From an uncultured Candidatus Saccharibacteria bacterium (GTDB lineage Bacteria > Patescibacteriota > Minisyncoccia > Phycocordibacterales > UBA918), in contig CAYXYJ010000001.1 in the NCBI GenBank assembly GCA_964469295.1, forward strand, positions 34,334 through 98,333: a stretch of DNA of 64,000 nucleotides. The letters run 5' to 3'. The notes under the pieces were generated by a model. That model saw only the letters and a list, made by a program, of their open reading frames with translations. It did no database searches and was not told the origin of the DNA. This document shows, one piece after another, positions 4,587 through 64,000 of the stretch (positions are counted from its first letter, which is position 1; each line of letters begins with the position of its first letter). The position numbers and the translations under genes were made by a program.

Positions 4587-7500
4587 GAGATTCGTTCCCC
4601 GGGATAGGGCTATACATAATTTCAGCTAGTGCAGTGTGTAACCCAGCATAACTATCAAGCGGAGAAAACCGGGTTGATCCGTTTAATAAGGTCGCGTCAG
4701 TACTGTGATAGCCGACACAACCCGTCGCACTCGCTGTACAGCCAGTACTCCACCCAACGGGTATTGCATTTGATCCCGTGACAGATGGAATTGATACACC
4801 ATACGAATTTATAAGTTGTTGTCTAGCATACGTATAAATGCGGTACCCATCAGTGGCGTTTGTCGTGATACCAATACGATGCGCGGCGTACACATTTGTA
4901 TTAGGAGCAATCGAACCAAAGGCAATAGCGGTCGGCGTCGTCGACACCGTTGTAGTAACTCCAGCGGTTGACGTACCACTCGGTAAACCACTGACGGTAA
5001 AAGACAACTTTGGAGTTTCTGCCACCAAACTTGGGTACACTTCCCCACTCGCTGCTGGCACAGGTAGGTTTTCATAGACATCGTATAAACGGAAATAGTA
5101 CACTGCACCAGCCCGAGCTGCTGCGTGCTTTAAATAAAAAGCATATTCAGCATTTGCGCCAGCATTGTGTGTATGACCAGCAGCATACACCGCCGAACGA
5201 TTATGTGTCCCACAACCAGAACCAACAGCACTCACACAAGTATCTGCGTCAGATAATACTTTTGTTGTAATGGTAGCATTTTCTTGACCGCCACCATCGG
5301 CATAACACCAGGTCGAAGTGGCCGTGCAGCTGGATGAAGCAACGAGTGTTGTTGGATGGGTAAAGTTAGGATCTTCGTCATATTGCAAACTAAATTTAGT
5401 ATCAATGCCACGAACATGTTTTTGTTCACCAACAGTTACTCGTAACGCAATCACATTTCCATTTTGTACTTCTGTTGGTGCCACTATTTCATTAGCCATA
5501 GCCGTTGCCGGAGTTTCGTTTTGCGCATCATCGTAAAATCGCCAATTTTTTGTTTGCGGGGTAAAACCAGCAGTGCGTATTTGTGGATAATTGAAATACC
5601 CATCAAGAGGCGTTCCATCAGCATGTACCATGCGGAAACAGTAAACACTTTTTTCAGCCGCGCCGTTTTGTTCAACAAACCACTCATATTCAACATCTTC
5701 GCCAGCGTCAACCGGATACGGGTTACTTGGTGACGTACCATCTTCAATCAAACTACCGACTCGATCGGATACCGAAATAAGTAGTTCACCGGGGTTGGGT
5801 GGATTGCTTCCAATTGATACGCCATCAGTCGTGCCGGTCGCCGCATAACCACGCCATAGTTCGCCACTTCCAGCATCACCCAAATTAGTCCACGAACCAA
5901 CCGTCGCACACGAAGTAGTTCGTAACCCGTATTGCAAACGGAAAACATACAGTCCGCTTGGTAAGGTGGCGTTGGCTACTCGCAATGTCATACGTAACCG
6001 TACGTGTTCATTTTCGCCAAGCGGACTGTCGGTAACAGTAATTGGACTATTTTCACCTAAATCGGTGACACCCGGTGGCCATGGATCAGTGGGGGTTACC
6101 GTATTGTTATCAGCATATAAACGATAGTAGTTTTGACGCACTGCTAATCCCGATGTTGGCCATTCGACAATTTCTGAACGAAATACCATGTCCGCCGAAG
6201 CTTCACTTCGCCAAACTTCGTATGTACTTGTTGAAGTGATTCGCGCCCCAGCAAATACCAAGGGGAAATTTGAATTAGCACCAACCACTCGTGAGGTAGC
6301 GAATATCGATGTGTTGTCCGTAGCAGACACTGGATCAATGATGCTTTGCGATAGGACATAGGGTTCACTATTGCTACTAGGGATAGTGAGCTTTTCACGT
6401 GACGTAACCATTGCACCAGCGCTTGTTTGCATGTTTTCAATTACCCAAGCTACAGACGTATGACCACTCGGTGTCGTAGCAGCGCTTTCCAACTGAAACG
6501 AAACAGCGCCAATGCTGGACAACCATACTTCATGACCAAAATTGTTAACGTTAGACAAATTACTTATTCGCTTTTGCGCGTGAATAAATGTCCGCTCAAG
6601 GCTATTGACGGGATTCATTGCTTCGGTTTCGGTAATGGTTGACGAGGCATAGGTGTGTTCAATTCGCTGCACATTCCAGTTAATTCCGCTGTATTCAACA
6701 ACAGCGTAACTTACATCGACAATTGCACCCGTAGAACCACGTAAAAATGTCGGGAGATTATTGTTTGCGTCCCAGTTGGTAGTCACTTGACTGGCATAAA
6801 AGAAATTTCGACCAGTATTGCGATTTTGTATACCGGTAATAAACACCACTACATCAGCATCATCAGTCACACCACTAACCGTTGTGCCCGTCGCGGATGT
6901 GCTGGCACTCGCTAAACTCATTGTGCCAGTACCCAACACTTTCATTTCGTTATCAGTACCGGGGTCGGCAATAAACTCCACAATTTCCCATGTAACACGG
7001 GTATTATTAATCGCCGTTGTCGGCCGAGAAATTGTAAAACTAGTCAATAAGTTGCTTTGACTGATATAGGCAGTAGTATCGTCAGCATTTTGCGCACCAC
7101 CACCAGCGGTTACTTTTCCGGCTCCAGTGAAGTGAGTGTCCGTGATCCGCACAAAGGCAGTTGACGTACTACTTGGTGCCACATAATCGACACCAGCCAC
7201 TAAGGTTGTGCTGGTGCCGGTGACCACGGCCACTCCTTGTTGTACTTTAAAATCTCGTTTTGGTGCCGTTCTTATTTCGGCGTAATTTGTATACTGCGGA
7301 AGCATTTCTCCTCCACCAGTTAACCGAAAACAATATGCCGAATCTACCAACGTTATATTAGTAGAAGTAATACTAAATTCAAATTCAGTGTATTCATTTG
7401 TTGCGAGCACTAGAGCAGTGGTAGTTGATGTGGTATCACGGACTCCGGCATTACTTACCAAAAAATTAACGTTTTCGTCAGTAATTCCCCCATTTCCGTT

Positions 7501-10500
7501 GGCAATATTTGTTGTATTGTTACCATTAGTAATATTTATTGAATCATACATATCCCAATCATCTGTAGCACTTCCTACTGGCGTCCATACAGCGACCATA
7601 TCGCACGTTGTTACTTTCGGTCCAAATTCTAATCGGTACGTTCGTGATACTGATGTGGCATAGCCTTCGTTACTAATACCAATACGTAAACGAATTGGAG
7701 TATTGGCAGAATGATTGGTTAGTGGAGTATTTTCCATACCAAGCGTAGCTGACGTCGCTCCAGTTTCATTCCCGTTATCGTTACGCCAGTGATAATTCGT
7801 CTGGGTAATGATTGAACCGGATAAAGTAGTTGTGCCTGTTAAGGTTATCGATTCTGACGGTGACACAGATCCACTTGATACCACCACATCATTGGTTGGT
7901 GACTGTATACCAATATGAATCGTTTCCCCATTGTGAGCACCGGCTTCCACATCAAAAACCGCATAAATACACATGGTGGTAGTGGTACTAATACCCACCG
8001 AACCCGAAAACGTCGACGTTCCATTGGGCCCAGAAAAACCATCAGCGTCGGTAGTGCCAAATTGTGACTCACTGCCACTATATGATTCACTGGTACAGTC
8101 GTATGGTGCAGTAGTGTCGAGGTCGTAGCGGAGTTTTATGTTCTTTAGGTTGGTGTTGGCGTTGATGGTACCATCTTCGGCGATGGTGATATTCGAAACG
8201 GTTCTTGTGCTTACATTTTCTTTTATGACAAATTTTCCACCAACATAGGCATTGGTTGTTGGAACAATGAGTGACGATACTTGTGTACCGGTAGCCGCCA
8301 CCGATACATCAGCCGCAATCGTCGCACTCGGGTACCGGTCATACACAGGCAATGCTTGACCATTGTCAGTCAAGCGAAAACAATATGTCGTTCCTTCGTG
8401 TGCACTCGTCGATGCAACAATAGAAAATTCTAATTCAACAAAATTTGTGCTGGTTAATGTTAATGATCCAGTTTCTGACGATGTGTCACGGATACCATCA
8501 TTTGGTGTTAAAAACGTAGTGTTTTCGTCAGTCACCCCCCCGTTCCCAACCGCAATATTGGTAGTGTTGTTGCCGTTGGTCACAAACGATGAATTATACA
8601 TATTCCATGCGTCATTGGTCGCATTCACATCAATCCAAGACGCCGCGGCTTCACAAGTTGGAGCGGCTGTAGCATATTCCAAACGAAAACGAGTTGTGGT
8701 GGCAGTAATCGAACCTTCATTTGAAACCTGTACACGTAGCCGTCGTGGCGAGTTTGCCAGTAATGTTGATAAATCAGTATCTTGTACCCCACCAGTGACA
8801 GAAGTCGCGCCGGTTTCATTCCCGTCATCATTTCGCCAATGATAATGAGTTTGTGTAAACTTACTGTTTTTAATTACAGTGCTTGAAGCTATTTGAACCG
8901 CCGTAATCGGCATGACGGTTTGTCCACCAGTCACCACTACATCGTTATTTGGTGATTCTATAGTAATAGACAGCGTATCGCCATCAACGGCTGTCTTTGA
9001 TACATCTACAACTGCATAGACACACATGCTTTGGGTTGGAGAAATACTTACTAATCCCGAAAACGTCGACGTTCCATTGGACCCAGAAAAACCATCAGCG
9101 TCGGTAGTGCCAAATTGTGACTCACTGCCACTATATGATTCACTGGTACAGTCGTATGGTGCAGTAGTGTCGAGGTCGTAGCGGAGTTTTATGTTCTTTA
9201 GGTTGGTGTTGGCGTTGACGGTGCCTCGTTCGGTAACGGTAATTGTTGTGACATTGCGACTCGCTTGACTTTCGCGTATCGCATATTGACCACCAACATA
9301 CACATTGGAAGAGCTTGCGATGACCGTGCTGGTGGCGGTGCCGTTAGCGTACACTTTTACGGCCGGAGCAATATCAGCAATCGTATCACCGAACATATCA
9401 TCCGGCGACGGGTCATACCATGAGATAAAAATACGTTCATCGCTCATGGTGTTCATATCTAATCCACGAAAGTCTCCCGCTGTACTATTTACTGGACCTT
9501 GAGCCGTTGACCATGACGACATTGCGGATGTCGATGTCGACCAGTAGACATTACCGGTAGTAGCAGTGGCAGGCGTAGTGCGAAGTACATAACCAACGTA
9601 AATATTGTTGGTATTCGTATCCATTGATACTGCCACCATCGTTAATCCTCTTGAAGCAATATTTGTAAAAACATCAGCAGTATTTGACCACGCGTTTGAA
9701 GAATATTTTGCTGTTCTAATGTCATGATCAAGAGTGGTGAATTGATCATTATCGGCAGCATATACCAAATACACATCACCAGAGACAGGATCAACCGTTG
9801 CCGCCATACCAGTGTCGTATGTCGCATTTTCTATAGCGTTGGCATCAAATGTTGTCCAAAGTCCAGACCAACTTGCACCGTTCCAAACCCGAGATCTCAT
9901 GTCATCAGCAGACGTATCTCGATTGATAATCATCACTTTACCACCAAGCAACGGTACGAGTAAATTCCAATCATTGGTCACATCCAAAAAGGCACTTCCC
10001 GCTTCAGTCCAATTTGCAGTATTGTTACAGGTTGTAGAACAATGAACCACAAACGCGTCAGATGCGTCAGCGGTGGCAATAAGTACATCACCGGTAGTAC
10101 TTTTCGTCATTGTGATGTTATTGGTTCCAACTGCCAACGTGGGCACTTGTCCAGAATTGGTCGTGGCATTTACTGGTGACGACCCCAACCATAAAGTATC
10201 GCTTGTTGTATCCAAACGATTGTAATACAAACTATCAGCTGCAGCTGACGTTTCCATAGTGGCAATATGGATATAGTTTCCGCTATCACCTGGCGTCCAC
10301 TGATCATACCAAACCACCATACTGCCACAGTCCGTACGAGCGTCCACAGTAACAGCGCTATTCCAACTTGTACCTCCGGTAGTAGTTTTACTATAAACAC
10401 ATGACCCGTTACTATCCCGATAGAATTTATACCCCACGGTATCAGAAACAAACACGGTTTGTGAACCACCAAAAAAATAGGAGTTGGCATCGGTGCTTGT

Positions 10501-10644
10501 TGTGGCATCTATGGTAACTTGCGCGGCTTCAACTATGACTGGACTAAATAAATATTGTAAAAAACCCCACTGCGATAAAAAAATTATCACAATCAAAAAG
10601 CCAGTTAATCCTTTACAGGCAAAAAGCGCTGGACACCTCCACAT
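4495..10644 (-). CDS. giant secreted surface protein (2049 aa): N-terminal BNR/Asp-box-like propeller region, two tandem ~351-aa modules, C-terminal A-type anchoring-like domain
   Basis: Signal peptide FLIVIIFLSQWGFLQYLF. The N-terminal region has Asp-box-like motifs (KTTTGGTSWNS, SNAWSNT, STSAMSSWST). A tandem duplicated module is present (NANTNLKNIKLRYDLDTTAPYDCTSESYSGSESQFGTTDADGFSG... then YHWRNDDGNETGATS...LRLRIGISNEG...YRLEFG...YCFRLT). The C-terminus ...SAQPAGDYETEIVYIALPVY matches the A1/A2 C-termini. Confidence 0.75.
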   Translation of the reverse strand: MWRCPALFACKGLTGFLIVIIFLSQWGFLQYLFSPVIVEAAQVTIDATTSTDANSYFFGGSQTVFVSDTVGYKFYRDSNGSCVYSKTTTGGTSWNSAVTVDARTDCGSMVVWYDQWTPGDSGNYIHIATMETSAAADSLYYNRLDTTSDTLWLGSSPVNATTNSGQVPTLAVGTNNITMTKSTTGDVLIATADASDAFVVHCSTTCNNTANWTEAGSAFLDVTNDWNLLVPLLGGKVMIINRDTSADDMRSRVWNGASWSGLWTTFDANAIENATYDTGMAATVDPVSGDVYLVYAADNDQFTTLDHDIRTAKYSSNAWSNTADVFTNIASRGLTMVAVSMDTNTNNIYVGYVLRTTPATATTGNVYWSTSTSAMSSWSTAQGPVNSTAGDFRGLDMNTMSDERIFISWYDPSPDDMFGDTIADIAPAVKVYANGTATSTVIASSSNVYVGGQYAIRESQASRNVTTITVTERGTVNANTNLKNIKLRYDLDTTAPYDCTSESYSGSESQFGTTDADGFSGSNGTSTFSGLVSISPTQSMCVYAVVDVSKTAVDGDTLSITIESPNNDVVVTGGQTVMPITAVQIASSTVIKNSKFTQTHYHWRNDDGNETGATSVTGGVQDTDLSTLLANSPRRLRVQVSNEGSITATTTRFRLEYATAAPTCEAAASWIDVNATNDAWNMYNSSFVTNGNNTTNIAVGNGGVTDENTTFLTPNDGIRDTSSETGSLTLTSTNFVELEFSIVASTSAHEGTTYCFRLTDNGQALPVYDRYPSATIAADVSVAATGTQVSSLIVPTTNAYVGGKFVIKENVSTRTVSNITIAEDGTINANTNLKNIKLRYDLDTTAPYDCTSESYSGSESQFGTTDADGFSGPNGTSTFSGSVGISTTTTMCIYAVFDVEAGAHNGETIHIGIQSPTNDVVVSSGSVSPSESITLTGTTTLSGSIITQTNYHWRNDNGNETGATSATLGMENTPLTNHSANTPIRLRIGISNEGYATSVSRTYRLEFGPKVTTCDMVAVWTPVGSATDDWDMYDSINITNGNNTTNIANGNGGITDENVNFLVSNAGVRDTTSTTTALVLATNEYTEFEFSITSTNITLVDSAYCFRLTGGGEMLPQYTNYAEIRTAPKRDFKVQQGVAVVTGTSTTLVAGVDYVAPSSTSTAFVRITDTHFTGAGKVTAGGGAQNADDTTAYISQSNLLTSFTISRPTTAINNTRVTWEIVEFIADPGTDNEMKVLGTGTMSLASASTSATGTTVSGVTDDADVVVFITGIQNRNTGRNFFYASQVTTNWDANNNLPTFLRGSTGAIVDVSYAVVEYSGINWNVQRIEHTYASSTITETEAMNPVNSLERTFIHAQKRISNLSNVNNFGHEVWLSSIGAVSFQLESAATTPSGHTSVAWVIENMQTSAGAMVTSREKLTIPSSNSEPYVLSQSIIDPVSATDNTSIFATSRVVGANSNFPLVFAGARITSTSTYEVWRSEASADMVFRSEIVEWPTSGLAVRQNYYRLYADNNTVTPTDPWPPGVTDLGENSPITVTDSPLGENEHVRLRMTLRVANATLPSGLYVFRLQYGLRTTSCATVGSWTNLGDAGSGELWRGYAATGTTDGVSIGSNPPNPGELLISVSDRVGSLIEDGTSPSNPYPVDAGEDVEYEWFVEQNGAAEKSVYCFRMVHADGTPLDGYFNYPQIRTAGFTPQTKNWRFYDDAQNETPATAMANEIVAPTEVQNGNVIALRVTVGEQKHVRGIDTKFSLQYDEDPNFTHPTTLVASSSCTATSTWCYADGGGQENATITTKVLSDADTCVSAVGSGCGTHNRSAVYAAGHTHNAGANAEYAFYLKHAAARAGAVYYFRLYDVYENLPVPAASGEVYPSLVAETPKLSFTVSGLPSGTSTAGVTTTVSTTPTAIAFGSIAPNTNVYAAHRIGITTNATDGYRIYTYARQQLINSYGVSIPSVTGSNAIPVGWSTGCTASATGCVGYHSTDATLLNGSTRFSPLDSYAGLHTALAEIMYSPIPGNESHDMLYRVLVRSAQPAGDYETEIVYIALPVY
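8003..8166. repeat. 164-bp near-identical direct repeat, copy 2 (inside the 2049-aa gene)
   Basis: Compared by eye with 9056..9219. It is identical except for one G/A difference (gggccc vs ggaccc, giving FSGPNG vs FSGSNG). The spacing is 1053 nt, equal to 351 codons. Confidence 0.8.
9056..9219. repeat. 164-bp near-identical direct repeat, copy 1 (inside the 2049-aa gene)
   Basis: Partner of 8003..8166. The flanking module homology is only ~60% at the amino-acid level, so this core looks recently homogenised. Confidence 0.8.
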
Positions 10645-16818: not shown

Positions 16819-18024
16819 TTAGAACACTGGTGTTGCTACGTATGTCAGCGTAGCGGTATAGTCGTCTCCGGCTTCTTGTAGATCTGAGATTTCAACTTTG
16901 TATCCAACGCGCGTTCGACCGATATTTGCAGTCGTTCCGTCTGATGGACCATCATGTCTGAATACCTCAACCGGTGTAGTTGAAGCAGAAACAAATAATT
17001 GTCCTGTTCCTCCCACATCAAACGGATCATCAAGATTTTCCGTTAACGTCTCATCTTCAGTTGTCAGACCCCAATGTCCCCAAGTGTCTTCATCACTAAT
17101 AGATTCTGAAGGTTGTACCCACGTCACAGGTGTCGTGGTATATGCTCCATCAATAAATCCATCAATATCAGCACCCGTTGATGACAATAATTGTTGGTCT
17201 ACAGCCACCGTAACAACGAATCCATAGCTGGCGTTAGTTGCTACTGATAGCTGTTGAGCTGCGGTTGAAGCAGTCCCAGCTTCCAAGACTCCAAATGGAA
17301 TCGCCGTAGCGGTGGTATCGCCGGTGATTAATTCGCTATTTACATAGCCACCCGCGTTTACTCCATCAACGGTAAAAGTGAAACTGGTATCAACTGAAGC
17401 GGTGACAACGACTGGTGACACGATCGCGACTCGAGTAGCTCCAGTATCTGTTGCTCCGGCTTCAATGTTAATCTCATATGAACCAACCGTAGGATTAGTA
17501 ATCTGATTTACACCAGAAGCACCAAAAGTGGCATTTGTTCCAATTTCAATGGTTGTTGTCCCATTAACTGGCAGTGAGCCCCCATCACCAGGACAGAAGG
17601 TCAGAATGATTTCATCAGACAAAGCTGAAAAACCAACTTGTTCTGATCCGGTACAGTCAGCAGCCACATCAAGATCGGTAGCGTCATCAGCAATATCAAC
17701 ATCTTCATAGTCCACCGCACCAAGTACGAATGGTCCATCGGAAAAGTCGATAGTGATAGAATCCCCTTCTGCCACTCCTGTTGGAGTAACAAATGTGATC
17801 GTGTGATTGGCACCAACTGATGGTGCTGAATCTGATAATGTATCACTTACTAATTTGACATTTGCGGCTTCCGCAAAGCGAAATGTAGGCACTCCGAGTG
17901 TCCACATAAGGACAGTGAAAGTAACTACAAAAGCCACAGCTTGGAGTAGACCGAACGTGGTTTTCGTTCTACTCATGTAACTACTACGTTGTATTAGCCT
18001 GACACTGCCGTATCTGAAAAACAT
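16819..18024 (-). CDS. A-family secreted surface protein A1 (S-layer-like/WxL-like candidate) with conserved C-terminal motif ...AGDDYTATLTYVATPVF
   Basis: 401 aa with a signal anchor (LLQAVAFVVTFTVLMWTLGVPTF). It is acidic and T/G/A/V/S-rich. It shares long blocks with 56947..58074 (GTNATFG..G.N.ITNPT.GSYE, TSFTFTV, WGHWGLT, C-terminal LQEAGDDY..(L)TY(V/I)ATP.F). It has its own terminator and a 445-nt upstream leader. Confidence 0.7.
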   Translation of the reverse strand: MFFRYGSVRLIQRSSYMSRTKTTFGLLQAVAFVVTFTVLMWTLGVPTFRFAEAANVKLVSDTLSDSAPSVGANHTITFVTPTGVAEGDSITIDFSDGPFVLGAVDYEDVDIADDATDLDVAADCTGSEQVGFSALSDEIILTFCPGDGGSLPVNGTTTIEIGTNATFGASGVNQITNPTVGSYEINIEAGATDTGATRVAIVSPVVVTASVDTSFTFTVDGVNAGGYVNSELITGDTTATAIPFGVLEAGTASTAAQQLSVATNASYGFVVTVAVDQQLLSSTGADIDGFIDGAYTTTPVTWVQPSESISDEDTWGHWGLTTEDETLTENLDDPFDVGGTGQLFVSASTTPVEVFRHDGPSDGTTANIGRTRVGYKVEISDLQEAGDDYTATLTYVATPVF

Positions 18025-55744: not shown

Positions 55745-56836
55745 CTACGAAAATAGCACCAATAATATGAGGAAGAATACAGCAGTGACTGTCATCATAA
55801 CTAAGAACATCATCAAGAAAGGATTCCCGGAATTTTTGCCGCGACGGACAACGCGACGACCAGCCGTCGCTTGGTAATACGCCAACTGGCGTCGCACGTA
55901 CATTTTTGTGGCCACATAGATGATAAGGAACAATACCGCCAAGACACCCAAGGCTGGACCAATAATATTCATCGGCAAAATCCAAAACGTTACGGTACTT
56001 GTCATGGTTTGTTTAGATCCTTCTTCACCATAGACCGCACTCAACACTGCTTCATATCGACCAAATCGTGTATCACTTCCCACCCACTCCAACACGAATT
56101 CTCGTGATGTTCCCGGAAAAACTCCGGCAGCGTCAGTGTTAAATAAGACCGTTCCAACCTTTTGACCAAACATGTTATTTATTTCCAACGGTCCAGTTGG
56201 GCGAATCAACGTACTTCCATTATTTTGAATATGGACGTTAAATTCAACATTTTGTGAACTATAGATATAATTATTGGTTGATAGTTGTCGAATTTCTGCT
56301 TTTTCAATAACGTCACCAGCAACACGCATCACAACAATGTGGGCGACCTCATAACCAACCGCTGCTCCACTTTCGCGAATTTCCGGCGCGTCCACTGACA
56401 CAAAAATTCCGGCAAAGTGACTTCCTGGCGTAGCGTTTGCTGGAGCATTCACCGTATATTGGATAGGCACTTCTTGACCAGCCGGCACAAAAATTGAATC
56501 CGTTGCAATTGTAATCCACTGACTTAATTCAAAACCGGTTGTTTCAATATTCTCGACAGCAAAAATTGGTACATTACCATCACGAACACCGGTAATATCA
56601 CGTTTACTTAAATAAAACGTTTGATCAATATTGCTTTCGTTCCGAACGGTGACAGTATGCGTTTGACTCGTTCCTAATTCAATTGCCTCATCAAGTGTCG
56701 CTGGCTTTAAGGTAATGCCGGCCCCTCCTTGTGCCATAACTATCGTAGCCGGAGACAATAACAATAAAGAAACAAACATTCCCAGGATAACAAGCAACGA
56801 ACGCATAACAAAAGATACATTAATGGTAAACAACAA
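55745..56836 (-). CDS. B-family paralog B4 (DUF916-like surface protein with C-terminal TM anchor)
   Basis: 363 aa. Signal peptide LLVILGMFVSLLLLSPATIVMAQG. The pattern ...LSQWITIATDSIFVPAGQEVPIQYTVNAPANATPGSHFAGIFVSV... is shared with B1-B3. C-terminal TM ALGVLAVLFLIIYVATKMYV is followed by RRQLAYY, then a second hydrophobic segment. Confidence 0.55.
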   Translation of the reverse strand: MLFTINVSFVMRSLLVILGMFVSLLLLSPATIVMAQGGAGITLKPATLDEAIELGTSQTHTVTVRNESNIDQTFYLSKRDITGVRDGNVPIFAVENIETTGFELSQWITIATDSIFVPAGQEVPIQYTVNAPANATPGSHFAGIFVSVDAPEIRESGAAVGYEVAHIVVMRVAGDVIEKAEIRQLSTNNYIYSSQNVEFNVHIQNNGSTLIRPTGPLEINNMFGQKVGTVLFNTDAAGVFPGTSREFVLEWVGSDTRFGRYEAVLSAVYGEEGSKQTMTSTVTFWILPMNIIGPALGVLAVLFLIIYVATKMYVRRQLAYYQATAGRRVVRRGKNSGNPFLMMFLVMMTVTAVFFLILLVLFS

Positions 56837-56879
56837 CAGTATATCACTTGTCTGTCATCATAGATTACTCCTATAAACA

Positions 56880-56916
56880 GGTACACAAAAAGCCCCTAAA
56901 GGGCTTTTTGTGTACC
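56880..56916 (-). terminator. strong rho-independent (bidirectional-type) terminator downstream of A2
   Basis: A perfect 16-bp inverted repeat ggtacacaaaaagccc / gggctttttgtgtacc with a 5-nt loop (ctaaa). A U-run follows the stem on the minus transcript. Confidence 0.7.
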
Positions 56917-56946
56917 TCTAATATTCAATTTTAGAACAGTGAATCT

Positions 56947-58074
56947 TTAGAAGGTTGGTGTTGCGATGTAGGTCAAAATCGTATTGTAGTCATCACCCGC
57001 TTCCTGGAGTGGCGTGATTTGAATTTGATATGCTACATCAGTTTCACCAATATCAACGGTAGTTCCATCTGATGGTCCGGTATGTGAGAACACTTGACGA
57101 GGTGTGGTACTAGCAGCTACGAAGAGTGCTGAACCAAACTCATCACCATTAAGGTTTGAGTCTTCTGAAGTAAGACCCCAGTGACCCCAAGTGTTTTCGT
57201 TAGCAATGTTATTGGTTGGTGTTACCCACGCGGTTGGCGTGTTGGTGTAAGCACCATCAATAAATCCATCAATATCAGCTCCTGTTGATGACTGTAGGTT
57301 TTGATCCTGTTCAACCGTTACTACGAATCCGTTACGAGCGTTCGTGGTGACGTTAAGTCGTTGACCAAGGGTCTTGATTTCACCAGCAGTTAACACACCG
57401 AATGGGATTGCGGTTGGAGTAGTTGAACCAGTGGTACTCGTACCGTTAACCGCTGTTGATGTTGCCAATCCACTTACAGTGAAAGTGAAACTGGTGTTAA
57501 CAATAGCGGTAACATCTACGTTGTCGAGAATTGCCACACGTGTGCGACCGGTATCAACAGTCCCCGCTGTCACGTAGAATTCGTATGAACCCGCAGTTGG
57601 GTTAGTGACACGGTTAGTACCCGTTGTACCGAAAGTAGCATTCGTACCGACTTCGATGACCACTGTTTGTCCAGCAGTTACCACACCTGTACCTGAAGTA
57701 AGCGTGAGCACTTGTCCTGAAACAGCTGCTCCCCAAGTGGCACCAGACTGTGTTGCTGCCAAAGTTTGGTCAACGCCGTTGATACTGAAGTCAACGTCTC
57801 CGAACGCAACTGATCCCAGGTTGAATCCAGCTGGAAATGTGACAGCAATAGTTTGTCCAGCGCTCACACCACCTGACGATGTCGCCATGGTAAAACGAAT
57901 CGTATGATTCGAAAGAGCTGATACATCAGAGTCTGATAATGTGTTGCTTAACACGGTAAGGTTAGCAGCATTAGCGATATTGTAGAATCCAATGGAAGCT
58001 ACCATAACGGCTGCAGCAACGAGCATCGCGACTACTCGGTGCAAAGCTTCAACAGATGTTGAAATTTTTTGCAT
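56947..58074 (-). CDS. A-family secreted surface protein A2 (paralog of A1; C-terminus ...LQEAGDDYNTILTYIATPTF)
   Basis: 375 aa with a signal anchor (VAMLVAAAVMVASIGF). It shares blocks with A1. It has its own terminator and a ~300-nt upstream region. Confidence 0.7.
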   Translation of the reverse strand: MQKISTSVEALHRVVAMLVAAAVMVASIGFYNIANAANLTVLSNTLSDSDVSALSNHTIRFTMATSSGGVSAGQTIAVTFPAGFNLGSVAFGDVDFSINGVDQTLAATQSGATWGAAVSGQVLTLTSGTGVVTAGQTVVIEVGTNATFGTTGTNRVTNPTAGSYEFYVTAGTVDTGRTRVAILDNVDVTAIVNTSFTFTVSGLATSTAVNGTSTTGSTTPTAIPFGVLTAGEIKTLGQRLNVTTNARNGFVVTVEQDQNLQSSTGADIDGFIDGAYTNTPTAWVTPTNNIANENTWGHWGLTSEDSNLNGDEFGSALFVAASTTPRQVFSHTGPSDGTTVDIGETDVAYQIQITPLQEAGDDYNTILTYIATPTF

Positions 58075-58372
58075 GAATATATTATTTTAAATAACTAATT
58101 ATGTAGTCGCAGGCGACTCTGCGGTACAAGCTCGGTTGTGATTATTGTGGAGAGGTATCTATCCATTTTTGTGAAAAACTCAGCCAATGGACATCTACCT
58201 TCACAACCGATCTACCCCTAGTATAAAAAAGTTTCATTCTTCTGTCTCTCACATTCTGTTGATAACTTTATGAGTGACAGCGATTGTACGATACAATGCG
58301 GTTTATTTTCCTCATTTTTTGATTGTAGCAATGACGTTTATACCAAAATCATTTCAAGAACAACTGTCGTTA

Positions 58373-59641
58373 TTACGGTATTGCGGACACTACGGCAATA
58401 TCAGACCACCGTGTCGTGTATGATGGCGACAAAGCGTCTTTTTTGTTTTCCCACAGAGGCTGTTTGGCAAAGGCGCCAATCCGAATCACATCGGTGTGGT
58501 GTTTATCATTAATTTTTTGCAATACCTGATCAATGGCAAAACGCCTTGTAATTGTTGTGTCTCCATAATCATTTTCCCATAAAGCCGGTGTTACATAGTG
58601 CCGCGGAATCAATCCGCCAACTACACACCCAACTTTGCTATAGACAACTCCTGGTTGGTACATAGTATCGATCATCCGCATCGCTAACTTCATTCCCGTC
58701 ATGACATCTCCTAATGGCGTTGTGGGTATTTCGACCATTGCCGTTCCTTGGCGAGCAAAATCACCGTGGCGACTCGTCAATAGTAAAATTCTTATCATAC
58801 CGACCAATAATGATTGCTGTTGTAAATCATTAAAGACATTACGGACATGATGAGCGAGAGCGTCCTTTATGACCGATAAGTCTGTCGTCTTGGTACCAAA
58901 AGATCTCGTTGACATGATACTTTGTGGTAGGACGGATGTTATTGCTATGTCATACATGGAAATTCCTTGCAATTCATATTGCAAGCGGACGCCCACCACT
59001 CCAAACAACGTCTCCACTCGACGCGGTGGTGTATCAACCAAATCACGAACTGTCGTGATACCTGCTCTATGGTACCGTTCTCTTAATTCACGACCGACAC
59101 CCCAAACATCACCAATCGGCGTACTACCATACGTTGCCACAAAATCACCAAGACATATACCAATACCGCCCGTACGCTTGGCTTGGGCATTCACTAATTT
59201 TGCCAGGGTTTTTGTTTGAGCAGCTGCTACTGACACCGGAATACCAACTCGTTGCTCGACGGCATTTTTAATCCGAGATAATTCCGATTGAATAGTGGCG
59301 ACGTCAGTTCCTGTCACTCTAAAAAACGCCTCATCAATTGAATACTGTTCAACGGTCGCACAGAGCGATCGTAATACCGTAAATACCCGGGCTGAGATAT
59401 CCCGGTACAGCGCGAAATTTGAAGAAAAGCAGGTAACACCGTTGTCTTTTATGATGTCCTTTATTTGAAAGTAAGGGACACCCATGGAAATACCCATGTC
59501 CTTTACTTCTTGTGACCGAGCGACCACACACCCATCGTTACTTGACAGAACCAAGACCGGCCGATTCCGCAAATCTGGTCGAAACAGTCGCTCGCATGAC
59601 ACGAAAAAATTATTACAATCGATCAAGCCAACAAGTTCCAT
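58373..59641 (-). CDS. umuC: Y-family translesion DNA polymerase (UmuC/DinB-like)
   Basis: 422 aa. The N-terminus is MELVGLIDCNNFFVSCERLFRPDLRNRPVLVLSSNDGCVVARSQEVK, which is the classic UmuC/ImpB start. The palm motif is ...YSIDEAFF.... Confidence 0.8.
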   Translation of the reverse strand: MELVGLIDCNNFFVSCERLFRPDLRNRPVLVLSSNDGCVVARSQEVKDMGISMGVPYFQIKDIIKDNGVTCFSSNFALYRDISARVFTVLRSLCATVEQYSIDEAFFRVTGTDVATIQSELSRIKNAVEQRVGIPVSVAAAQTKTLAKLVNAQAKRTGGIGICLGDFVATYGSTPIGDVWGVGRELRERYHRAGITTVRDLVDTPPRRVETLFGVVGVRLQYELQGISMYDIAITSVLPQSIMSTRSFGTKTTDLSVIKDALAHHVRNVFNDLQQQSLLVGMIRILLLTSRHGDFARQGTAMVEIPTTPLGDVMTGMKLAMRMIDTMYQPGVVYSKVGCVVGGLIPRHYVTPALWENDYGDTTITRRFAIDQVLQKINDKHHTDVIRIGAFAKQPLWENKKDALSPSYTTRWSDIAVVSAIP

Positions 59642-59650
59642 ATTTCTTTG

Positions 59651-59659
59651 AGTATAACA
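59651..59659 (-). promoter_or_regulatory. candidate extended -10 (TGTTATACT) for umuC
   Basis: The revcomp of 59651..59659 is TGTTATACT. It lies ~20 nt upstream of the umuC start codon inside the 170-nt gap after the NUDIX gene. Confidence 0.3.
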
Positions 59660-59811
59660 GAATGATTTATAGTATCCTCATTATTGCCTGTTTGTAGTAT
59701 CGAAATATCAACTAATCTTTCATCAATACAGATGATGACAAAAAGCGAAACGAACACATGTAAAGACACCGCCCCGTCGAATGTGGAGCGGTGTCAGAAG
59801 TCACCTAAAAG

Positions 59812-60393
59812 TTACTGGTCACCCTTTGATAGCAGTTCGCGCTCAGCATACTGCAACAGTATCCTGTTGTTTTCTGCCTTAAAACCTGGCATGCGCGCGA
59901 GCGCATGATCAATTGGCAAAAATTCAACCACATCGAATTCCTTGTCCGGCGCTTCTGACAGGTCAATGACAACCGTTGGCTTAAGGCGCAGATACCACCA
60001 CTGATGTATCTGACCTTGATAGTATTCCTTCCCCGCTTTCCCCAAGTCTCGAGACTTGGTCGTTTCAAATGTGTAGCAGGTGAGGGCCGGGTATTGGCCG
60101 ATGATATGATAATCAATCGGTCGCAATCCCGTTTCTTCCTGTAGCTCGCGTTTCATTCCCGCCAATGGTATTTCCGGTGTTCTTTTGACCAACCGACCCC
60201 GATCCCGAGTTTCTTGGCAATCAAGTCCACCTTGCTGCAATTGCCAGATGGACGTACCGTCCCGCCGAAAGACAGCTACCTCGTTGCTGTCAGCAGCAAA
60301 AATCACCGTTCCAACACCCATTCGCATTGAAACGATATGAGATGCGGTGGGTTCTTTCTTTTTTTTCATAGCGTTATCCTCTTTACCATTCAT
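59812..60393 (-). CDS. NUDIX hydrolase
   Basis: 193 aa. The Nudix box reads GGLDCQETRDRGRLVKRTPEIPLAGMKRELQEETGL (E-x7-REUxEExGU present). The likely start is the internal MKKKKEPT. Confidence 0.65.
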   Translation of the reverse strand: MNGKEDNAMKKKKEPTASHIVSMRMGVGTVIFAADSNEVAVFRRDGTSIWQLQQGGLDCQETRDRGRLVKRTPEIPLAGMKRELQEETGLRPIDYHIIGQYPALTCYTFETTKSRDLGKAGKEYYQGQIHQWWYLRLKPTVVIDLSEAPDKEFDVVEFLPIDHALARMPGFKAENNRILLQYAERELLSKGDQ

Positions 60394-60442
60394 CTAGACT
60401 GTACAGTACAGGCAAAACACTATTACTGTCAAACGATATATT

Positions 60443-61654
60443 TTATAAATTATTCCACAAGTCCATGTCTTCTTCTCCATCAATCTTAAATAACGCAATC
60501 CCGCGGACTCCGTACTTTTTGACCAAATCCATTTTATCTTCAATCGCCGCCGCGTCACTGTAGGTAATAAATCGCACTGAGACTGTTTGTCCGGTTTTAT
60601 TGGCATACGCCAGGGCTTTCGCTGCTGCTTCCATACCTTTTGGTGTTCCTTTTGGTGTTTTGGTTTTGGCTAGATGCGCATACAATCCATCCGTTGGGAA
60701 ATAACTCATCACCGCTTCCCCGCCAGCACTCCGACCAATTGGTGTCTTGTAGATTTTTTTTGACAGTTCTTTAATGCGTGGAGGATTTAAAGTCGCCACT
60801 CGCGTATACGCTTGGTACCAGTCTGGCGACACCGTTACGTCCCACGCGCGACCATACGTGGCTGTGCCAATCATCACTTTTTCTTTCGAAAAATCTTCGA
60901 GAGCAAGTTTAACCACTTTTTCCACCCATTCGTTATCAGCGACTGGTGCGTATGGCACTCCGGAACGCTTTTTATTCAACGTCAAATCAGCGCGTTGTTG
61001 GTCGTACGTCATCAACTCGATTCGATCGCAATATTCACCAATCGCCTGATAATCGTTCGCATAGCGCAATGGATTGGGAATAGTGGTGTATAAATCTTTC
61101 GCTGGGGTCCGGGCTTCAATGGCACAGGTCAATACTTTGTCACCAAGAGCCTTATTTAAATCACGTAAAAAAATGGAGAAAAAATCCTTTGTCTCGGCAT
61201 TTTTATCTTCGTAATCAATATTCACGCCATCAAATTTTCCGTTTTTTACTAATTTTACAATCGAGGCAATTTGTTCATTTCTTAACTTTTCATTACTAAG
61301 AACCGGATGAATCTGGTCGCCATCAAACCATGCAATCGTGGGAATAATTTCCACTTTGTTCTTGCGGGCGGTTTTAAAGAACGTCTGCCACTGTTTTTCT
61401 GACAAATTAGCTTTGTCAATGATGCTCCCCGCAGCATCCACTTCGTACACAAATGGATAGACCGTATCAAGTTTTTTAATATTTTTGGTAGCACTTTTGA
61501 GGCCCGCGGTATCACTCCACCACGGTATCCATCCGGCGACTTCACCTTCGTACGCAGCCAACGCAGGCGTTGGCGCCAGTATACCAAGCGTGATACCACA
61601 TACCATCATTCCAGCGGTAATAAACTTTTTGGTTGTCTGTGTGTGTGTAATCAT
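60443..61654 (-). CDS. secreted glycoside hydrolase family 18 (chitinase/SleL-like) protein
   Basis: 403 aa with a signal peptide. The GH18 core contains [10 protein letters not shown], a DxxDxDxE motif with Asn at the second Asp position. Upstream GH18-like strands are [12 protein letters not shown]. Confidence 0.6.
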
Positions 61655-61752
61655 ATTCGTAGAGACGAAGCTACCGGGAAATTCTTACGCGCAATATATA
61701 ATATATGTACTGTATCGTACGTGTTTGTTGCTGAAAAGAGGAAATACTTTTA

Positions 61753-62184
61753 TTAAAACTGTCGCACACTGCCAGTAACCGCTCCCCAAATAAAACACTC
61801 TCGGGTATCTGCAACAAAAATCGGCGCATATCCATCTTGTTCCGAACACAACCACATACCAACATGATCAATGCGTAATCGTTTTACTACCAATCCGCCA
61901 TCTACCGCCGCCACGACAATCATACCGGAACGTGGTTCAATACTGCGATCAATCACGAGCACATCACCAGAAAATATCCCAGCACCTTCCATGGAATCCC
62001 CTTCAACTCGAACAAAGAACGTGCTTTCGGGATGCTTGACGAGTAAATCATGAACATTCAGTGACATTTCTACCATATCGTCGCCCGGAGCCGGAAAGCC
62101 CGCTTGGGGAGCGCTTTGATATAACGGTACACTACCAACAACACTTGACCCGGCAGAAGTCCACTTTTTAGTCACTTGAAGCAT
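61753..62184 (-). CDS. umuD: UmuD-like S24 self-cleaving peptidase (LexA C-terminal domain homolog without DNA-binding domain)
   Basis: 143 aa. ...QAGFPAPGDDMVEMSLNVHDLLVKHPESTFFVRVEGDSMEGAGI...GGLVVKRL. It has the Ala-Gly cleavage site, the Ser nucleophile (GDSM) and the Lys base (VVKRL). It aligns with the E. coli UmuD [36 protein letters not shown] region. Confidence 0.75.
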   Translation of the reverse strand: MLQVTKKWTSAGSSVVGSVPLYQSAPQAGFPAPGDDMVEMSLNVHDLLVKHPESTFFVRVEGDSMEGAGIFSGDVLVIDRSIEPRSGMIVVAAVDGGLVVKRLRIDHVGMWLCSEQDGYAPIFVADTRECFIWGAVTGSVRQF

Positions 62185-62197
62185 AGAAGATTACTTT

Positions 62198-63412
62198 TTA
62201 TAAGATAGTGGCGCCACTGGTAACAACCGTATGGATGTAAAAGAGTATCGACATTCCCAACAATAACGCTACTCCATACCACACATGTCGCATCCGTTGT
62301 TCGCGCCACTCAATAAAAATCGAAGTGAGCAATAAACCGACCACGATACTCCCGATACTCACGTATAACCACCACATAAGTTGCTGTGATGAAGTGAGGA
62401 GACCAACAAGACCCGGATTATCTCGAGGGGCGGCTGTCGCCGCCACTGGTATCGGAGCCAAACCACTAGTGGTGGCAATTGTATCGCTTACAATAGCAAT
62501 ACCCTCATCGGTGACCACTGTATCTGCCACCACCAAGCGTTCGGGCACAATCGGATCCAAAGATTCGGACACTAATGTCGTTGAATCCGTCTCATTATGA
62601 GCCACAGCGGGAGTAGCGGTAGCGACTGTTTCTGTTGACGCAACATCTCCTACATCATTGGCCAACTCTATTTCCGCTCCAGCAATTTCTTCTGCCGGTT
62701 CTGACGAAGAAACATCGGTGGTCATGGCAATAGTTTCAGCATTTTTAGGAGCACTATTGGTCGCAACCACAACATCAGTGGCACTCGTTGACTCTAATCC
62801 ATTAGTCAGACGATTAGGTACCAATCCAGTAGCGACTGGTGAGACGTTCCCGGCCGCTGGGGTACCAAATAATTGCACCACAAACACCGTATCATAGCCC
62901 TCGTAGCGACCGCGGGCGGTACCGACGCCAATTTCAGTAAAATTAGCGTTCACAATATTGGCGCGGTGGGTTGGTGATTTCATCCACGCAGTCACCACTT
63001 CATGTGAATCGGAAAAATGCACTGCCAGATTTTCACCAGCATTAGCAAAAACATATCCCGCTTCCTCAAACCAATACCACGGTGACACTCCCGTTGGGCT
63101 GTAATGAGCAAAGTAACTGTTTTGGGCCATATCCTCAGCCTTTAACCGCGCCGCCACATCCAACACCTCATTACGACGTAACTCTGGAAGTGCTTCATCG
63201 GCGCGTTCTTCGTTCGTAAGCGTTACCACGACCGCCGGTAACACGGCACCAACCAACCAATTAGATGATTGCCATAAAATGGCTTGAAGGTTGGCCGCGA
63301 GAAAAGTGAGCAAAATAAGACTGGCCATTCCCATCAGGGCCGCCCGCTGCAATAAGTGCGGCGTGTAGTCATTATCCTGACTCGGAATAAAGGCGTCTTT
63401 TGTCAATTTCAT
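62198..63412 (-). CDS. membrane-anchored CAP/SCP (PR-1-like, YkwD-type) domain protein
   Basis: 404 aa. N-terminal TM and a CAP domain (LTNEERADEALPELRRNEVLDVAARLKAEDMAQNSYFAHYSP...AGENLAVHF...TAWMKSPTHRANIVNANFTEIGVG). A T/A-rich linker and two C-terminal TM helices follow. Its stop is 13 nt before the umuD start. Confidence 0.65.
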   Translation of the reverse strand: MKLTKDAFIPSQDNDYTPHLLQRAALMGMASLILLTFLAANLQAILWQSSNWLVGAVLPAVVVTLTNEERADEALPELRRNEVLDVAARLKAEDMAQNSYFAHYSPTGVSPWYWFEEAGYVFANAGENLAVHFSDSHEVVTAWMKSPTHRANIVNANFTEIGVGTARGRYEGYDTVFVVQLFGTPAAGNVSPVATGLVPNRLTNGLESTSATDVVVATNSAPKNAETIAMTTDVSSSEPAEEIAGAEIELANDVGDVASTETVATATPAVAHNETDSTTLVSESLDPIVPERLVVADTVVTDEGIAIVSDTIATTSGLAPIPVAATAAPRDNPGLVGLLTSSQQLMWWLYVSIGSIVVGLLLTSIFIEWREQRMRHVWYGVALLLGMSILFYIHTVVTSGATIL

Positions 63413-63523
63413 ACGTTATATGTCTACTAGTATAGCATTTTTACGCTCGGACAAATACTAATACGTTCAATAATCGGCAATCAGACCCGCACGTCAATCA
63501 CTATCATGATATACTCCCCTCAT

Positions 63524-64000
63524 ATGAAACGATTTTTATTGTTGGGTAGTATACTATTCGGATTAATAACGAACGCTTCGCTAGTATCGGCCAACACCTT
63601 GCTTGCCAGTCAGGTAATTCCCTTGAGTGACCAACACACTCTCTATGTGTTAACCTTTACCATACACGAAGAAAAATCTCCCTTGATCATTCCGAGTACT
63701 ATTACGCGCCAGAGCGGAACGGCCAGTACCACCGGTGACATTCTCTACAGCCTACGTACACCCGAAGGTCTCCGAGTGAAAAGCGGACTCACCGCCGCTA
63801 TGATTATTCAAGATGCCACAGCCAGCACCAGTGTCACAGGCTTTACTGTCGCTAACCACCCCACTACGTTCAGTTTACTCGTGCTTCACCAACAGCCAGG
63901 ATCAACTTCACGAGCCAATACACTACAAGTGGACCAACTACCGTTTTACTTGACCTCCCCGAACGGATTGCAACGTTTAGAATTCACTCCTCAAGAATTA
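63524..64000 (+). CDS. secreted hypothetical protein, 5' part (continues beyond the window end)
   Basis: ATG at 63524. It translates MKRFLLLGSILFGLITNASLVSANTLLASQVIPLSDQHTLYVLTFTIHEEKSPLIIPSTITRQSGTASTTGDILYSL..., which looks like a signal peptide. No stop occurs before 64000. It is the only plus-strand gene, so the 111-nt gap 63413..63523 is a divergent promoter region. Confidence 0.5.
   Translation, partial: MKRFLLLGSILFGLITNASLVSANTLLASQVIPLSDQHTLYVLTFTIHEEKSPLIIPSTITRQSGTASTTGDILYSLRTPEGLRVKSGLTAAMIIQDATASTSVTGFTVANHPTTFSLLVLHQQPGSTSRANTLQVDQLPFYLTSPNGLQRLEFTPQEL

Follow-up and report, generated by a model that had tools for sequence, protein, structure and literature searches.

The umuD and umuC genes of the window

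The 64-kb stretch of contig CAYXYJ010000001.1 analyzed here (the window) encodes both subunits of DNA polymerase V (Pol V), the autopeptidase UmuD and the Y-family polymerase UmuC, in an arrangement that lacks two features of a canonical SOS umuDC operon, namely, adjacency with cotranscription and a known LexA box. Open reading frames (ORFs) were taken from a six-frame list, and their domains were assigned by Pfam and NCBIfam profile searches. Five consecutive ORFs on the minus strand encode a CAP-domain membrane protein, UmuD, a secreted GH18 glycosidase, a NUDIX hydrolase, and UmuC, in that order and at exactly the coordinates given in a preliminary description of this DNA (Table 1). The spacings reported there are also confirmed in the sequence: the CAP stop codon (62200-62198) is followed after 13 nucleotides (nt) by the umuD ATG (62184), and the separation of umuD from umuC by the GH18 and NUDIX genes, described as ∼2.1 kb, measures 2,111 nt from the umuD stop to the umuC start.

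The identity of UmuD is well defined, with matches to Pfam Peptidase_S24 (3.7e-25) and to the NCBIfam model PRK10276 for the autoproteolytic subunit of Pol V (135.5 bits, passing the cutoff of 110), and with Escherichia coli UmuD as the best PDB match (8gmt_B, 4.6e-23). Ala28-Gly29 aligns with the E. coli cleavage site Cys24-Gly25, Gly29 being the counterpart of the first residue in the UmuD' crystal chain 1umu, and Ser64 (GDSM) and Lys101 (VKRL) align with the E. coli Ser/Lys dyad S60 and K97, so that the cleavage site and dyad named in the preliminary description (Ala-Gly, GDSM Ser, and KRL Lys) all have E. coli counterparts. The UmuD alignment is independently confirmed by the PDB alignment. 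At 143 amino acids (aa), the protein has no N-terminal DNA-binding domain; its alignment with LexA spans LexA residues 84 to 197 only, and the NCBIfam lexA model scores 60 bits (cutoff of 111) through the C-terminal part only.

UmuC is more divergent. Its best NCBIfam model is UmuC, at 276.3 bits, below the subfamily cutoff of 431, with the model matched end to end (residues 5 to 418 of 422), and Pol IV models score at most 137 bits. Because the UmuC model is by far the best and is matched over its whole length, we regard the protein as a divergent UmuC and not as DinB. Asp8 and Asp103/Glu104 align with D6 and D101/E102 of E. coli UmuC.

Both subunits are predicted to be still functional in the window lineage. 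The UmuD and UmuC ORFs are full length and intact in all loci that span both genes, the Ala-Gly site and GDSM motif are kept in 77/77 distinct UmuD copies of the clade described below, the N-terminal catalytic Asp motif of UmuC (DCNNFF) is kept in 43/43 complete copies, and at least 35 of these 43 also retain SPxYTTxW, the C-terminal DUF4113 motif. That the separated genes are decaying relics from which no polymerase is made is very improbable and is largely refuted by this conservation of catalytic and cleavage motifs, on which grounds we rejected a pseudogene reading. Such decay would fit the subfamily score of UmuC, which falls below its cutoff, the window sequence TPALW at the likely clamp-binding motif (QLNLF in E. 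coli, QPSLF in relatives), and the pace of change in UmuC, which at 39 to 51% identity to the window copy in clade loci L081 to L160 is the fastest-evolving gene of the block. The corresponding ranges are 53 to 79% for UmuD, 49 to 76% for GH18, and 45 to 85% for p375, the 375-aa ORF downstream of umuC. In enterobacteria the order is the opposite, UmuC being better conserved than UmuD.

Recurrence and origin of the split arrangement

The nearest UmuC relatives among species-representative genomes are 45 to 49% identical to the window copy and come from metagenome-assembled genomes labeled Candidatus Kaiserbacteria, Patescibacteria group, and Candidatus Paceibacteria. Three loci from this genome collection (L001 to L003, in JAYSSH01, JAZKFU01, and JBGSVK01) keep the order CAP-umuD-...-GH18-...-umuC-p375-p363. 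A metagenome scan seeded with UmuD of the clade added 80 further loci (L081 to L160) with UmuD 53 to 79% identical, and essentially every one long enough, corresponding to ∼40 distinct metagenome loci, showed the order CAP-umuD-(GH18)-(NUDIX)-umuC-p375-p363. Altogether, 44 distinct loci of this clade of Paceibacteria/Kaiserbacteria-like Patescibacteria contain a complete umuC; GH18 lies in the gap between umuD and umuC in 30 of them and NUDIX in 16, and in 5 of the 44 umuD and umuC are separated by 9 to 221 nt. In almost all loci of the clade, the CAP gene immediately precedes umuD. In ∼70 loci of other lineages, umuD directly precedes umuC. The preliminary description had suggested inspecting gene neighborhoods in related genomes, and the split order proves to recur in this set of 44 distinct loci, which is more than chance.

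The adjacent state is found in outgroups (L004, L005, L010, and L011) and in the basal clade members of a rough neighbor-joining tree of UmuC (L099/L100, with a 9-nt gap, and L119, with 30 nt), and these loci already carry CAP upstream and/or p375 downstream. The split is thus most simply a derived insertion into an arrangement CAP-umuD-umuC-p375, as the unbootstrapped tree suggests.

What occupies the gap varies from locus to locus: nothing, GH18, NUDIX of either of two families (A or B), Fic/RhuM, NYN, zeta toxin, MBL-fold, cupin, GT2 glycosyltransferase, TauE exporter, or histidine phosphatase genes, and IS200-like Y1 transposases in 4 loci. In L001 and L002, two small opposite-strand ORFs with no Pfam match lie between umuD and GH18. 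The presence of mobile or selfish genes marks the site as a hotspot of recombination and insertion, and the variability of its content argues against a conserved functional module of five genes. The mobile or selfish genes (IS200-like Y1 transposases, Fic/RhuM proteins, and a zeta toxin) were found in L103, L121/L125, L137, and L156; L085, L098, and L129; and L093.

Two further features of the gap were seen in L001 and L002. A conserved structured element of ∼125 nt lies directly 3' of the umuD stop (L001 4262-4400; L002 ∼7430-7560); it folds at -43 kcal/mol (z = -4.8, with 0/200 shuffles as stable), and it had no credible match in Rfam, where the L001 element gave only the SurA small RNA, sub-threshold at 18.9 bits against 100. 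Tandem 8-nt repeats, (AAAATAGA)n, extend from GH18 to the umuC terminator/promoter (L001 6470-6560; L002 9755-9850).

Promoters and transcription units

In the window, the extended -10 element TGTTATACT ends 9 nt before the umuC ATG. In 40/49 distinct loci of relatives, a TATA[AC]T hexamer ends 6 to 21 nt upstream of this start codon, at 6 to 12 nt in 37 of those 40 and with the upstream TG of an extended -10 in 28. This short spacing indicates that the umuC mRNA is probably leaderless or near-leaderless. Upstream of the promoter in the window, a hairpin of 11 bp folds at -23.6 kcal/mol (z = -3.1, with 0/200 shuffles as stable) and is likely a terminator or barrier between NUDIX and umuC. In 18 of the 49 distinct loci, a terminator-like hairpin with a T-rich tail lies no more than 90 nt ahead of umuC, often fused to the promoter, such that the T-tract supplies the TTTG of TTTGcTATACT.

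The CAP gene has a similar promoter, TGCTATACT in the window, with the -10 lying 6 to 17 nt before the start in 30/42 distinct loci of relatives (within 45 nt in 32/42); no -35 or any other position beyond the extended -10 is conserved in these CAP promoters. The junction between CAP and umuD is 1 to 13 nt long and without a promoter in the subclade of the window, and is 35 to 106 nt long with a TATACT promoter of its own, and sometimes a terminator too, in other subclades; in about one-third of distinct umuD copies, a separate -10 lies near the ATG. Given this variation between subclades, CAP and umuD are likely cotranscribed in the window, and their cotranscription is not universal in the clade. 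No stable hairpin was found by RNA folding between umuD and GH18 (-9.6 kcal/mol, z = +0.8) or between GH18 and NUDIX in the window, which makes read-through from CAP-umuD into these two genes possible. Generic scans of 57900-63800 added little: a sigma-70 -35/-10 scan returned 7 matches against 11.2 expected and was uninformative, the promoters being of the extended -10 type, and a generic terminator scan called nothing in the intergenic regions.

GGAG, GAGG, and AGGA are all absent from the 20 nt preceding the start of each of the 30 minus-strand genes of the window. The missing Shine-Dalgarno motif before umuD is therefore a genome-wide trait, and translation initiation appears, from these start regions, to be Shine-Dalgarno independent or leaderless throughout the genome. 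The first genes of units in the window often have TATA[AC]T close upstream of the start. One further case is a plus-strand gene (MKRFLLLGSILF...) that starts at 63524 and runs off the end of the window: its element TGATATACT (63507-63515), 8 nt upstream, is divergent from the CAP promoter and also of the extended -10 type, with a spacing that again implies a leaderless mRNA.

LexA and SOS control

Eight published LexA-box patterns, a set that did not include the Patescibacteria-specific LexA motif, were absent from the intergenic regions of 58075-63700, in agreement with the preliminary description, which had reported no LexA box upstream of umuD or umuC. Its statement that the window contains no full LexA also stands: UmuD is the only S24 domain in the 64 kb, and no lexA gene was found there or in 784 kb of clade loci.

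We also looked for sequence shared among promoters of the clade. Ninety-eight promoters (umuC, umuD, and CAP) were aligned on the -10 for information content, and the only informative positions were T/TTG.TATACT and the ATG, the rest of the region from -45 to -5 reaching at most 0.5 bit. No 4-mer dyad, palindromic or direct, with a spacer of 0 to 12 exceeded a count of 9 among the 114 promoter regions, the same maximum as for shuffled sequence, in a test that needs exact 4-mers. A shared LexA-type operator in the clade promoters is unlikely on this evidence. Since no known operator was found at either gene or in the 114 regions of relatives, the noncanonical and possibly LexA-independent regulation put forward in the preliminary description is plausible, and umuD and umuC are probably transcribed constitutively or at least independently of LexA, as judged from negative evidence.

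Two sequences that look palindrome-like by eye, CTGTACTGTACAG (60399-60411, upstream of NUDIX) and GTACGATACAGTAC (61707-61720, upstream of GH18), were considered as operators and rejected. Of the 7 copies of their common TACAGTAC in the window, most fall within genes, and relatives do not keep it at a fixed position; the palindrome-like piece GTACGATACAGTAC itself is not conserved in relatives either.

LexA motifs differ greatly between phyla. It is accordingly conceivable, if unlikely, that the locus is still SOS regulated, with a LexA encoded elsewhere binding a divergent operator at the CAP and umuC promoters and the split being a trivial insertion. A degenerate site could have been missed by the exact-4-mer dyad test, umuDC belongs to the core LexA regulon of most phyla (PMC8565304), and the SOS network of Patescibacteria (Sanchez-Osuna, Barbe, and Erill 2017, Environ Microbiol 19:3465), the superphylum to which the window clade belongs, is reported to have a noncanonical direct-repeat LexA motif, as cited in PMC7739468. 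The promoters of the window clade differ from that network in having no enriched direct or inverted dyad in the 114 regions. Continued SOS control is further disfavored by the absence of the known LexA motifs, of any conservation beyond the -10 in the 98 promoters, and of lexA from the sequence searched. At several loci, moreover, a terminator stem fills the -35 and spacer up to the -10 and the ATG follows 6 to 12 nt on, which leaves little room for an operator.

NUDIX hydrolases of the gap

The NUDIX genes found between umuD and umuC belong to two unrelated families. Family A proteins (∼160 aa) are encoded on the opposite strand in 14 loci, divergent from umuC and sharing with it a divergent promoter region of 30 to 90 nt. 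Those of relatives match E. coli RppH (NudH) over its full length (6.6e-21) and have the WQFxQGG...RExxEE motif in common with it; their NCBIfam RppH scores of ∼100 bits are below the cutoffs of 116 to 259, and MutT models give 21 to 23 bits against cutoffs of 98 to 148. The window NUDIX is a divergent member of this family, 30 to 39% identical to family A of relatives, and its orientation, the same as that of umuC, is unusual for the family. It matches Pfam NUDIX at 4.9e-6, its best NCBIfam model is RppH at 54.9 bits (below cutoff), its best PDB match is a diadenosine tetraphosphate (Ap4A) hydrolase (1f3y, E = 0.004), and no MutT equivalog model matched it at E ≤ 0.01. The window protein keeps the REx2EE motif, but its Nudix box carries 13 inserted residues and its N terminus is extended. 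The likeness to RppH/NudH is a full-length alignment of family A from relatives, and that to Ap4A hydrolases a best structural match of the window copy; all scores stay below the NCBIfam equivalog cutoffs. Family B (∼141 aa) is codirectional, sits after umuD or after GH18, and is not RppH-like, matching only generic Nudix or ADP-ribose-pyrophosphatase-like models.

All 22 NUDIX ORFs in the 784 kb of clade loci lie inside the umuD-umuC gap. For comparison, 1.15 Mb around 77 umuDC loci outside the clade contain only two ORFs with a Nudix box, each at a distance of more than 8 kb. We put the chance of two Nudix families entering one two-gene slot at ∼0.002, an order-of-magnitude estimate that assumes Nudix genes to be ∼0.5% of genes and ∼13 families to have been inserted. 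Confinement of two families to the gap is unlikely by chance, and a functional link of some kind between NUDIX and umuDC is a minority possibility. The preliminary description had suggested that NUDIX could couple nucleotide-pool sanitation to error-prone synthesis. The linkage part of this proposal gains support from the 22/22 count; sanitation finds no homology support, because the window NUDIX belongs to a family that is RppH/Ap4A-hydrolase-like and not MutT. Our literature search found no paper linking Nudix with umuC neighborhoods.

The same evidence bears on whether the five genes form a single cotranscribed module in which NUDIX cleanses the deoxynucleoside triphosphate pool for an error-prone polymerase. 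The genes are codirectional in the window, no strong terminator separates umuD, GH18, and NUDIX, and two unrelated NUDIX families occur solely in the gap. Against such a module, umuC has its own extended -10 promoter with a hairpin before it, and the five-gene unit whose cotranscription the preliminary description proposed to test is not supported. In relatives the gap holds opposite-strand genes (family A NUDIX in 14 loci and the small ORFs of L001 and L002), terminators, transposases, and toxins, GH18 is missing from 14/44 loci and NUDIX from 28/44, and the tight CAP-umuD junction is confined to one subclade. With family A resembling RppH far more closely than MutT and an atypical Nudix box in the window copy, we consider a pool-cleansing module improbable.

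A different role would follow if the RppH-like NUDIX stripped the 5' triphosphate from leaderless umuC and umuD mRNAs and so set their lifetime, replacing LexA control. The full-length match of family A to RppH, the divergent promoter region that it shares with umuC in 14 loci, the predicted leaderless state of both mRNAs, and the restriction of NUDIX genes to the gap are all compatible with this idea. The proposal is inferential throughout, and the usual role of RppH is general housekeeping. NUDIX is absent from the gap in 28/44 loci, family B does not resemble RppH, and all RppH scores are below curated cutoffs; we therefore hold the proposal to be quite improbable.

A probable rearrangement of the Pol V locus

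The interpretation that we favor, with a probability of roughly 0.7, is that the window carries an ordinary umuDC (Pol V) locus whose rearrangement is specific to a Paceibacteria/Kaiserbacteria-like lineage and is inherited vertically within this clade. The ancestral order would have been CAP-umuD-umuC-p375, and the umuD-umuC junction would have become an insertion hotspot in which a cell wall GH18 gene and an RppH-like NUDIX gene settled. Two units are predicted: CAP-umuD, transcribed from TGCTATACT and perhaps read on into GH18 and NUDIX, and umuC alone, transcribed from TGTTATACT downstream of the 11-bp hairpin and probably leaderless. Transcription of umuD and umuC would probably be constitutive or at least LexA independent. 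If transcription is LexA independent, the main control by DNA damage would be the RecA*-stimulated self-cleavage that turns UmuD into UmuD', by analogy with the E. coli paradigm (PMC3901139).

Several points weigh against this interpretation. A degenerate operator, or one inside a coding sequence, would escape the dyad test, such that LexA independence is a matter of negative evidence; a noncanonical direct-repeat LexA motif is reported for Patescibacteria, as cited in PMC7739468; and the lexA search is confined to the window and the 784 kb of clade loci. The promoter and terminator calls are consensus based, the T-tract of the window hairpin is weak, and the generic terminator scan did not call this hairpin. 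The neighbor-joining tree is unbootstrapped, so the polarity of the change (insertion versus repeated loss) is a suggestion. Finally, the occurrence of two NUDIX families exclusively in the gap hints at some functional linkage, for which a pure hotspot model offers no explanation.

The locus can be compared with two studied systems. In E. coli, umuD and umuC overlap by 1 nt and are cotranscribed and LexA repressed (PMC3901139; PMC13062779). The window locus has the same two proteins, with the cleavage site, the Ser/Lys dyad, the catalytic Asp and Asp-Glu residues, and DUF4113, and presumably, by analogy, the same RecA*-stimulated cleavage of UmuD followed by assembly of UmuD'2C. It differs in that the genes lie 2.1 kb apart with separate promoters and without a detected LexA box, umuD being joined instead to a gene for an unrelated membrane protein. 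Uncoupled genes have their closest precedent in Acinetobacter baumannii, in which active Pol V is formed from separately encoded umuD and umuC in a "mix and match" manner (PMC13062779). There too umuD and umuC (umuD1389/UmuDAb, umuC2008, and umuC2015) are found at separate sites, and SOS control is not exerted by canonical LexA. The lone genes of A. baumannii, however, coexist with intact umuDC operons, and the N-terminal part of UmuDAb is used for repression, whereas the available window sequence has one umuD and one umuC, ∼2 kb apart in a conserved order, and its UmuD is of normal size (143 aa) without a DNA-binding part.

Pol V is the textbook enzyme of SOS mutagenesis, and its error-prone nature is the reason why tight, multilayered control is considered essential. 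What is new here is that the Pol V locus is stably split throughout a clade, with independent promoters that are probably leaderless and in which no operator was detected: an ultra-small, host-dependent clade keeps both subunits under purifying selection, yet the operon is dismantled. If confirmed, the arrangement would be a natural test of how far the LexA layer is dispensable and would bear on mutation supply in the reduced genomes of the candidate phyla radiation (CPR), with the recurrent NUDIX neighbor as a concrete candidate accessory factor. A stronger version, in which Pol V of the clade has been freed from the LexA/SOS circuit and is expressed from constitutive leaderless mRNAs, with gating after transcription by RecA* and possibly by a twice-recruited RppH-like NUDIX acting on mRNA 5' ends or nucleotide substrates, strikes us as rather unlikely. 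At present the locus is a comparative-genomics curiosity, a real but modest variation on a well-known system in which no new mechanism is demonstrated. Among the papers listed by a literature search, none combined CPR with umuC.

Coordinates and neighboring genes

Table 1. Features of the umuD-umuC region, listed in the direction of transcription (positions are those of the window)
Feature	Position	Strand	Remarks
CAP-umuD unit extended -10 element TGCTATACT	63429..63437	-	16 nt before CAP ATG
CAP/SCP (YkwD-like) membrane protein	62198..63412	-	404 aa; Pfam CAP
CAP-umuD junction	62185..62197	-	13 nt; no promoter, terminator, or Shine-Dalgarno motif
umuD, Pol V subunit (S24 autopeptidase)	61753..62184	-	143 aa; NCBIfam PRK10276
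umuD-GH18 intergenic region	61655..61752	-	no stable hairpin (RNA fold)
Secreted GH18 glycosidase	60443..61654	-	403 aa; Pfam GH18
NUDIX hydrolase	59812..60393	-	193 aa; Pfam NUDIX; divergent family A
11-bp GC-rich hairpin directly 3' of NUDIX stop	59765..59795	-	RNA fold
umuC extended -10 promoter TGTTATACT	59651..59659	-	9 nt before umuC ATG; -10 hexamer also in 40/49 distinct relatives
umuC, Y-family polymerase, catalytic subunit of Pol V	58373..59641	-	422 aa; IMS + IMS_C + DUF4113
p375, 375-aa ORF downstream of umuC	56947-58074	-	no Pfam match

The CAP protein matches Pfam CAP at 4.5e-19 (69.9 bits, cutoff of 21.1) and the NCBIfam YkwD domain at 2.5e-33 (114.7 bits, below the cutoff of 171). 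Judged by eye, it has an N-terminal transmembrane segment, an extracellular CAP domain, a low-complexity linker, and a C-terminal pair of transmembrane segments. The GH18 protein (Pfam, 5.6e-28, 99 bits against a cutoff of 29.6) has its best PDB matches in 4q6t, YdhD (3cz8), and YaaH (4s3k), and its N-terminal signal-like segment ends in ALA-AY as read from the sequence. Its catalytic motif, DGVNIDYE, retains the Glu and the flanking Asp residues, with Asn in place of the middle Asp of DxxDxDxE. The protein resembles the YdhD/YaaH type (peptidoglycan-fragment hydrolase), and its gene is an inserted cell envelope gene. The YdhD and YaaH (SleL) enzymes of Bacillus are among its best solved-structure matches and have the (D)GxxxDxE catalytic-motif region in common with it; the window enzyme differs from them in having no LysM domains, a plain signal peptide, and the Asn in the motif. 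Such an assignment fits its cell envelope neighbors (CAP, p375, p363, and a 7,749-aa ORF). Within the GH18 gene, 68 nt into the coding sequence and in the part for the signal peptide, an extended -10 match, TGGTATACT (∼61578-61586, minus strand), may be a chance occurrence or an internal start.

Downstream of umuC, p375 has a signal peptide, is Thr/Gly rich, and contains WGHWGL and a C-terminal LTYIATPTF; a paralog at 52% identity lies at 16819-18024. The p375/p363 region spans 55745-58074. p363 has a weak WxLIP_PGBD match and a C-terminal transmembrane segment, with paralogs at ∼2489-3511 and 3621-4523 (span 2489-4586), and together p375 and p363 look like repeated Csc/WxL-like cell surface modules. 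Giant, presumably surface, proteins are typical of CPR genomes, and the window contains the uninterrupted 7,749-aa ORF at 26756-50005 (minus strand) and a 2,049-aa ORF at 4495-10644.

The spacer between umuC and p375 (58075-58372, minus strand) is 289 to 344 nt long in 35/35 clade loci and contains invariant blocks: GTTATCAACA (58266-58257), a GAGACA-17-TATACT promoter (58248-58220), GGCTGAG, CTCTCCACA, and AGTTATTTAAAA. Rfam gave no match in the p375 leader and nothing in the window at gathering thresholds. A likeness of the post-NUDIX hairpin to this leader, in the form of the pattern CCGCTCCACA..ATTCGAC, was found only in L001 and L002. The predicted 5' end of the leader, CGGTTGTGA (58209-58201), pairs with TCACAACCG (58141-58133) in a 9-bp helix for which RNAalifold shows compensatory changes in 8/9 pairs, which makes the region a candidate for a new structured 5' leader, the surface protein encoded downstream being probably abundant.

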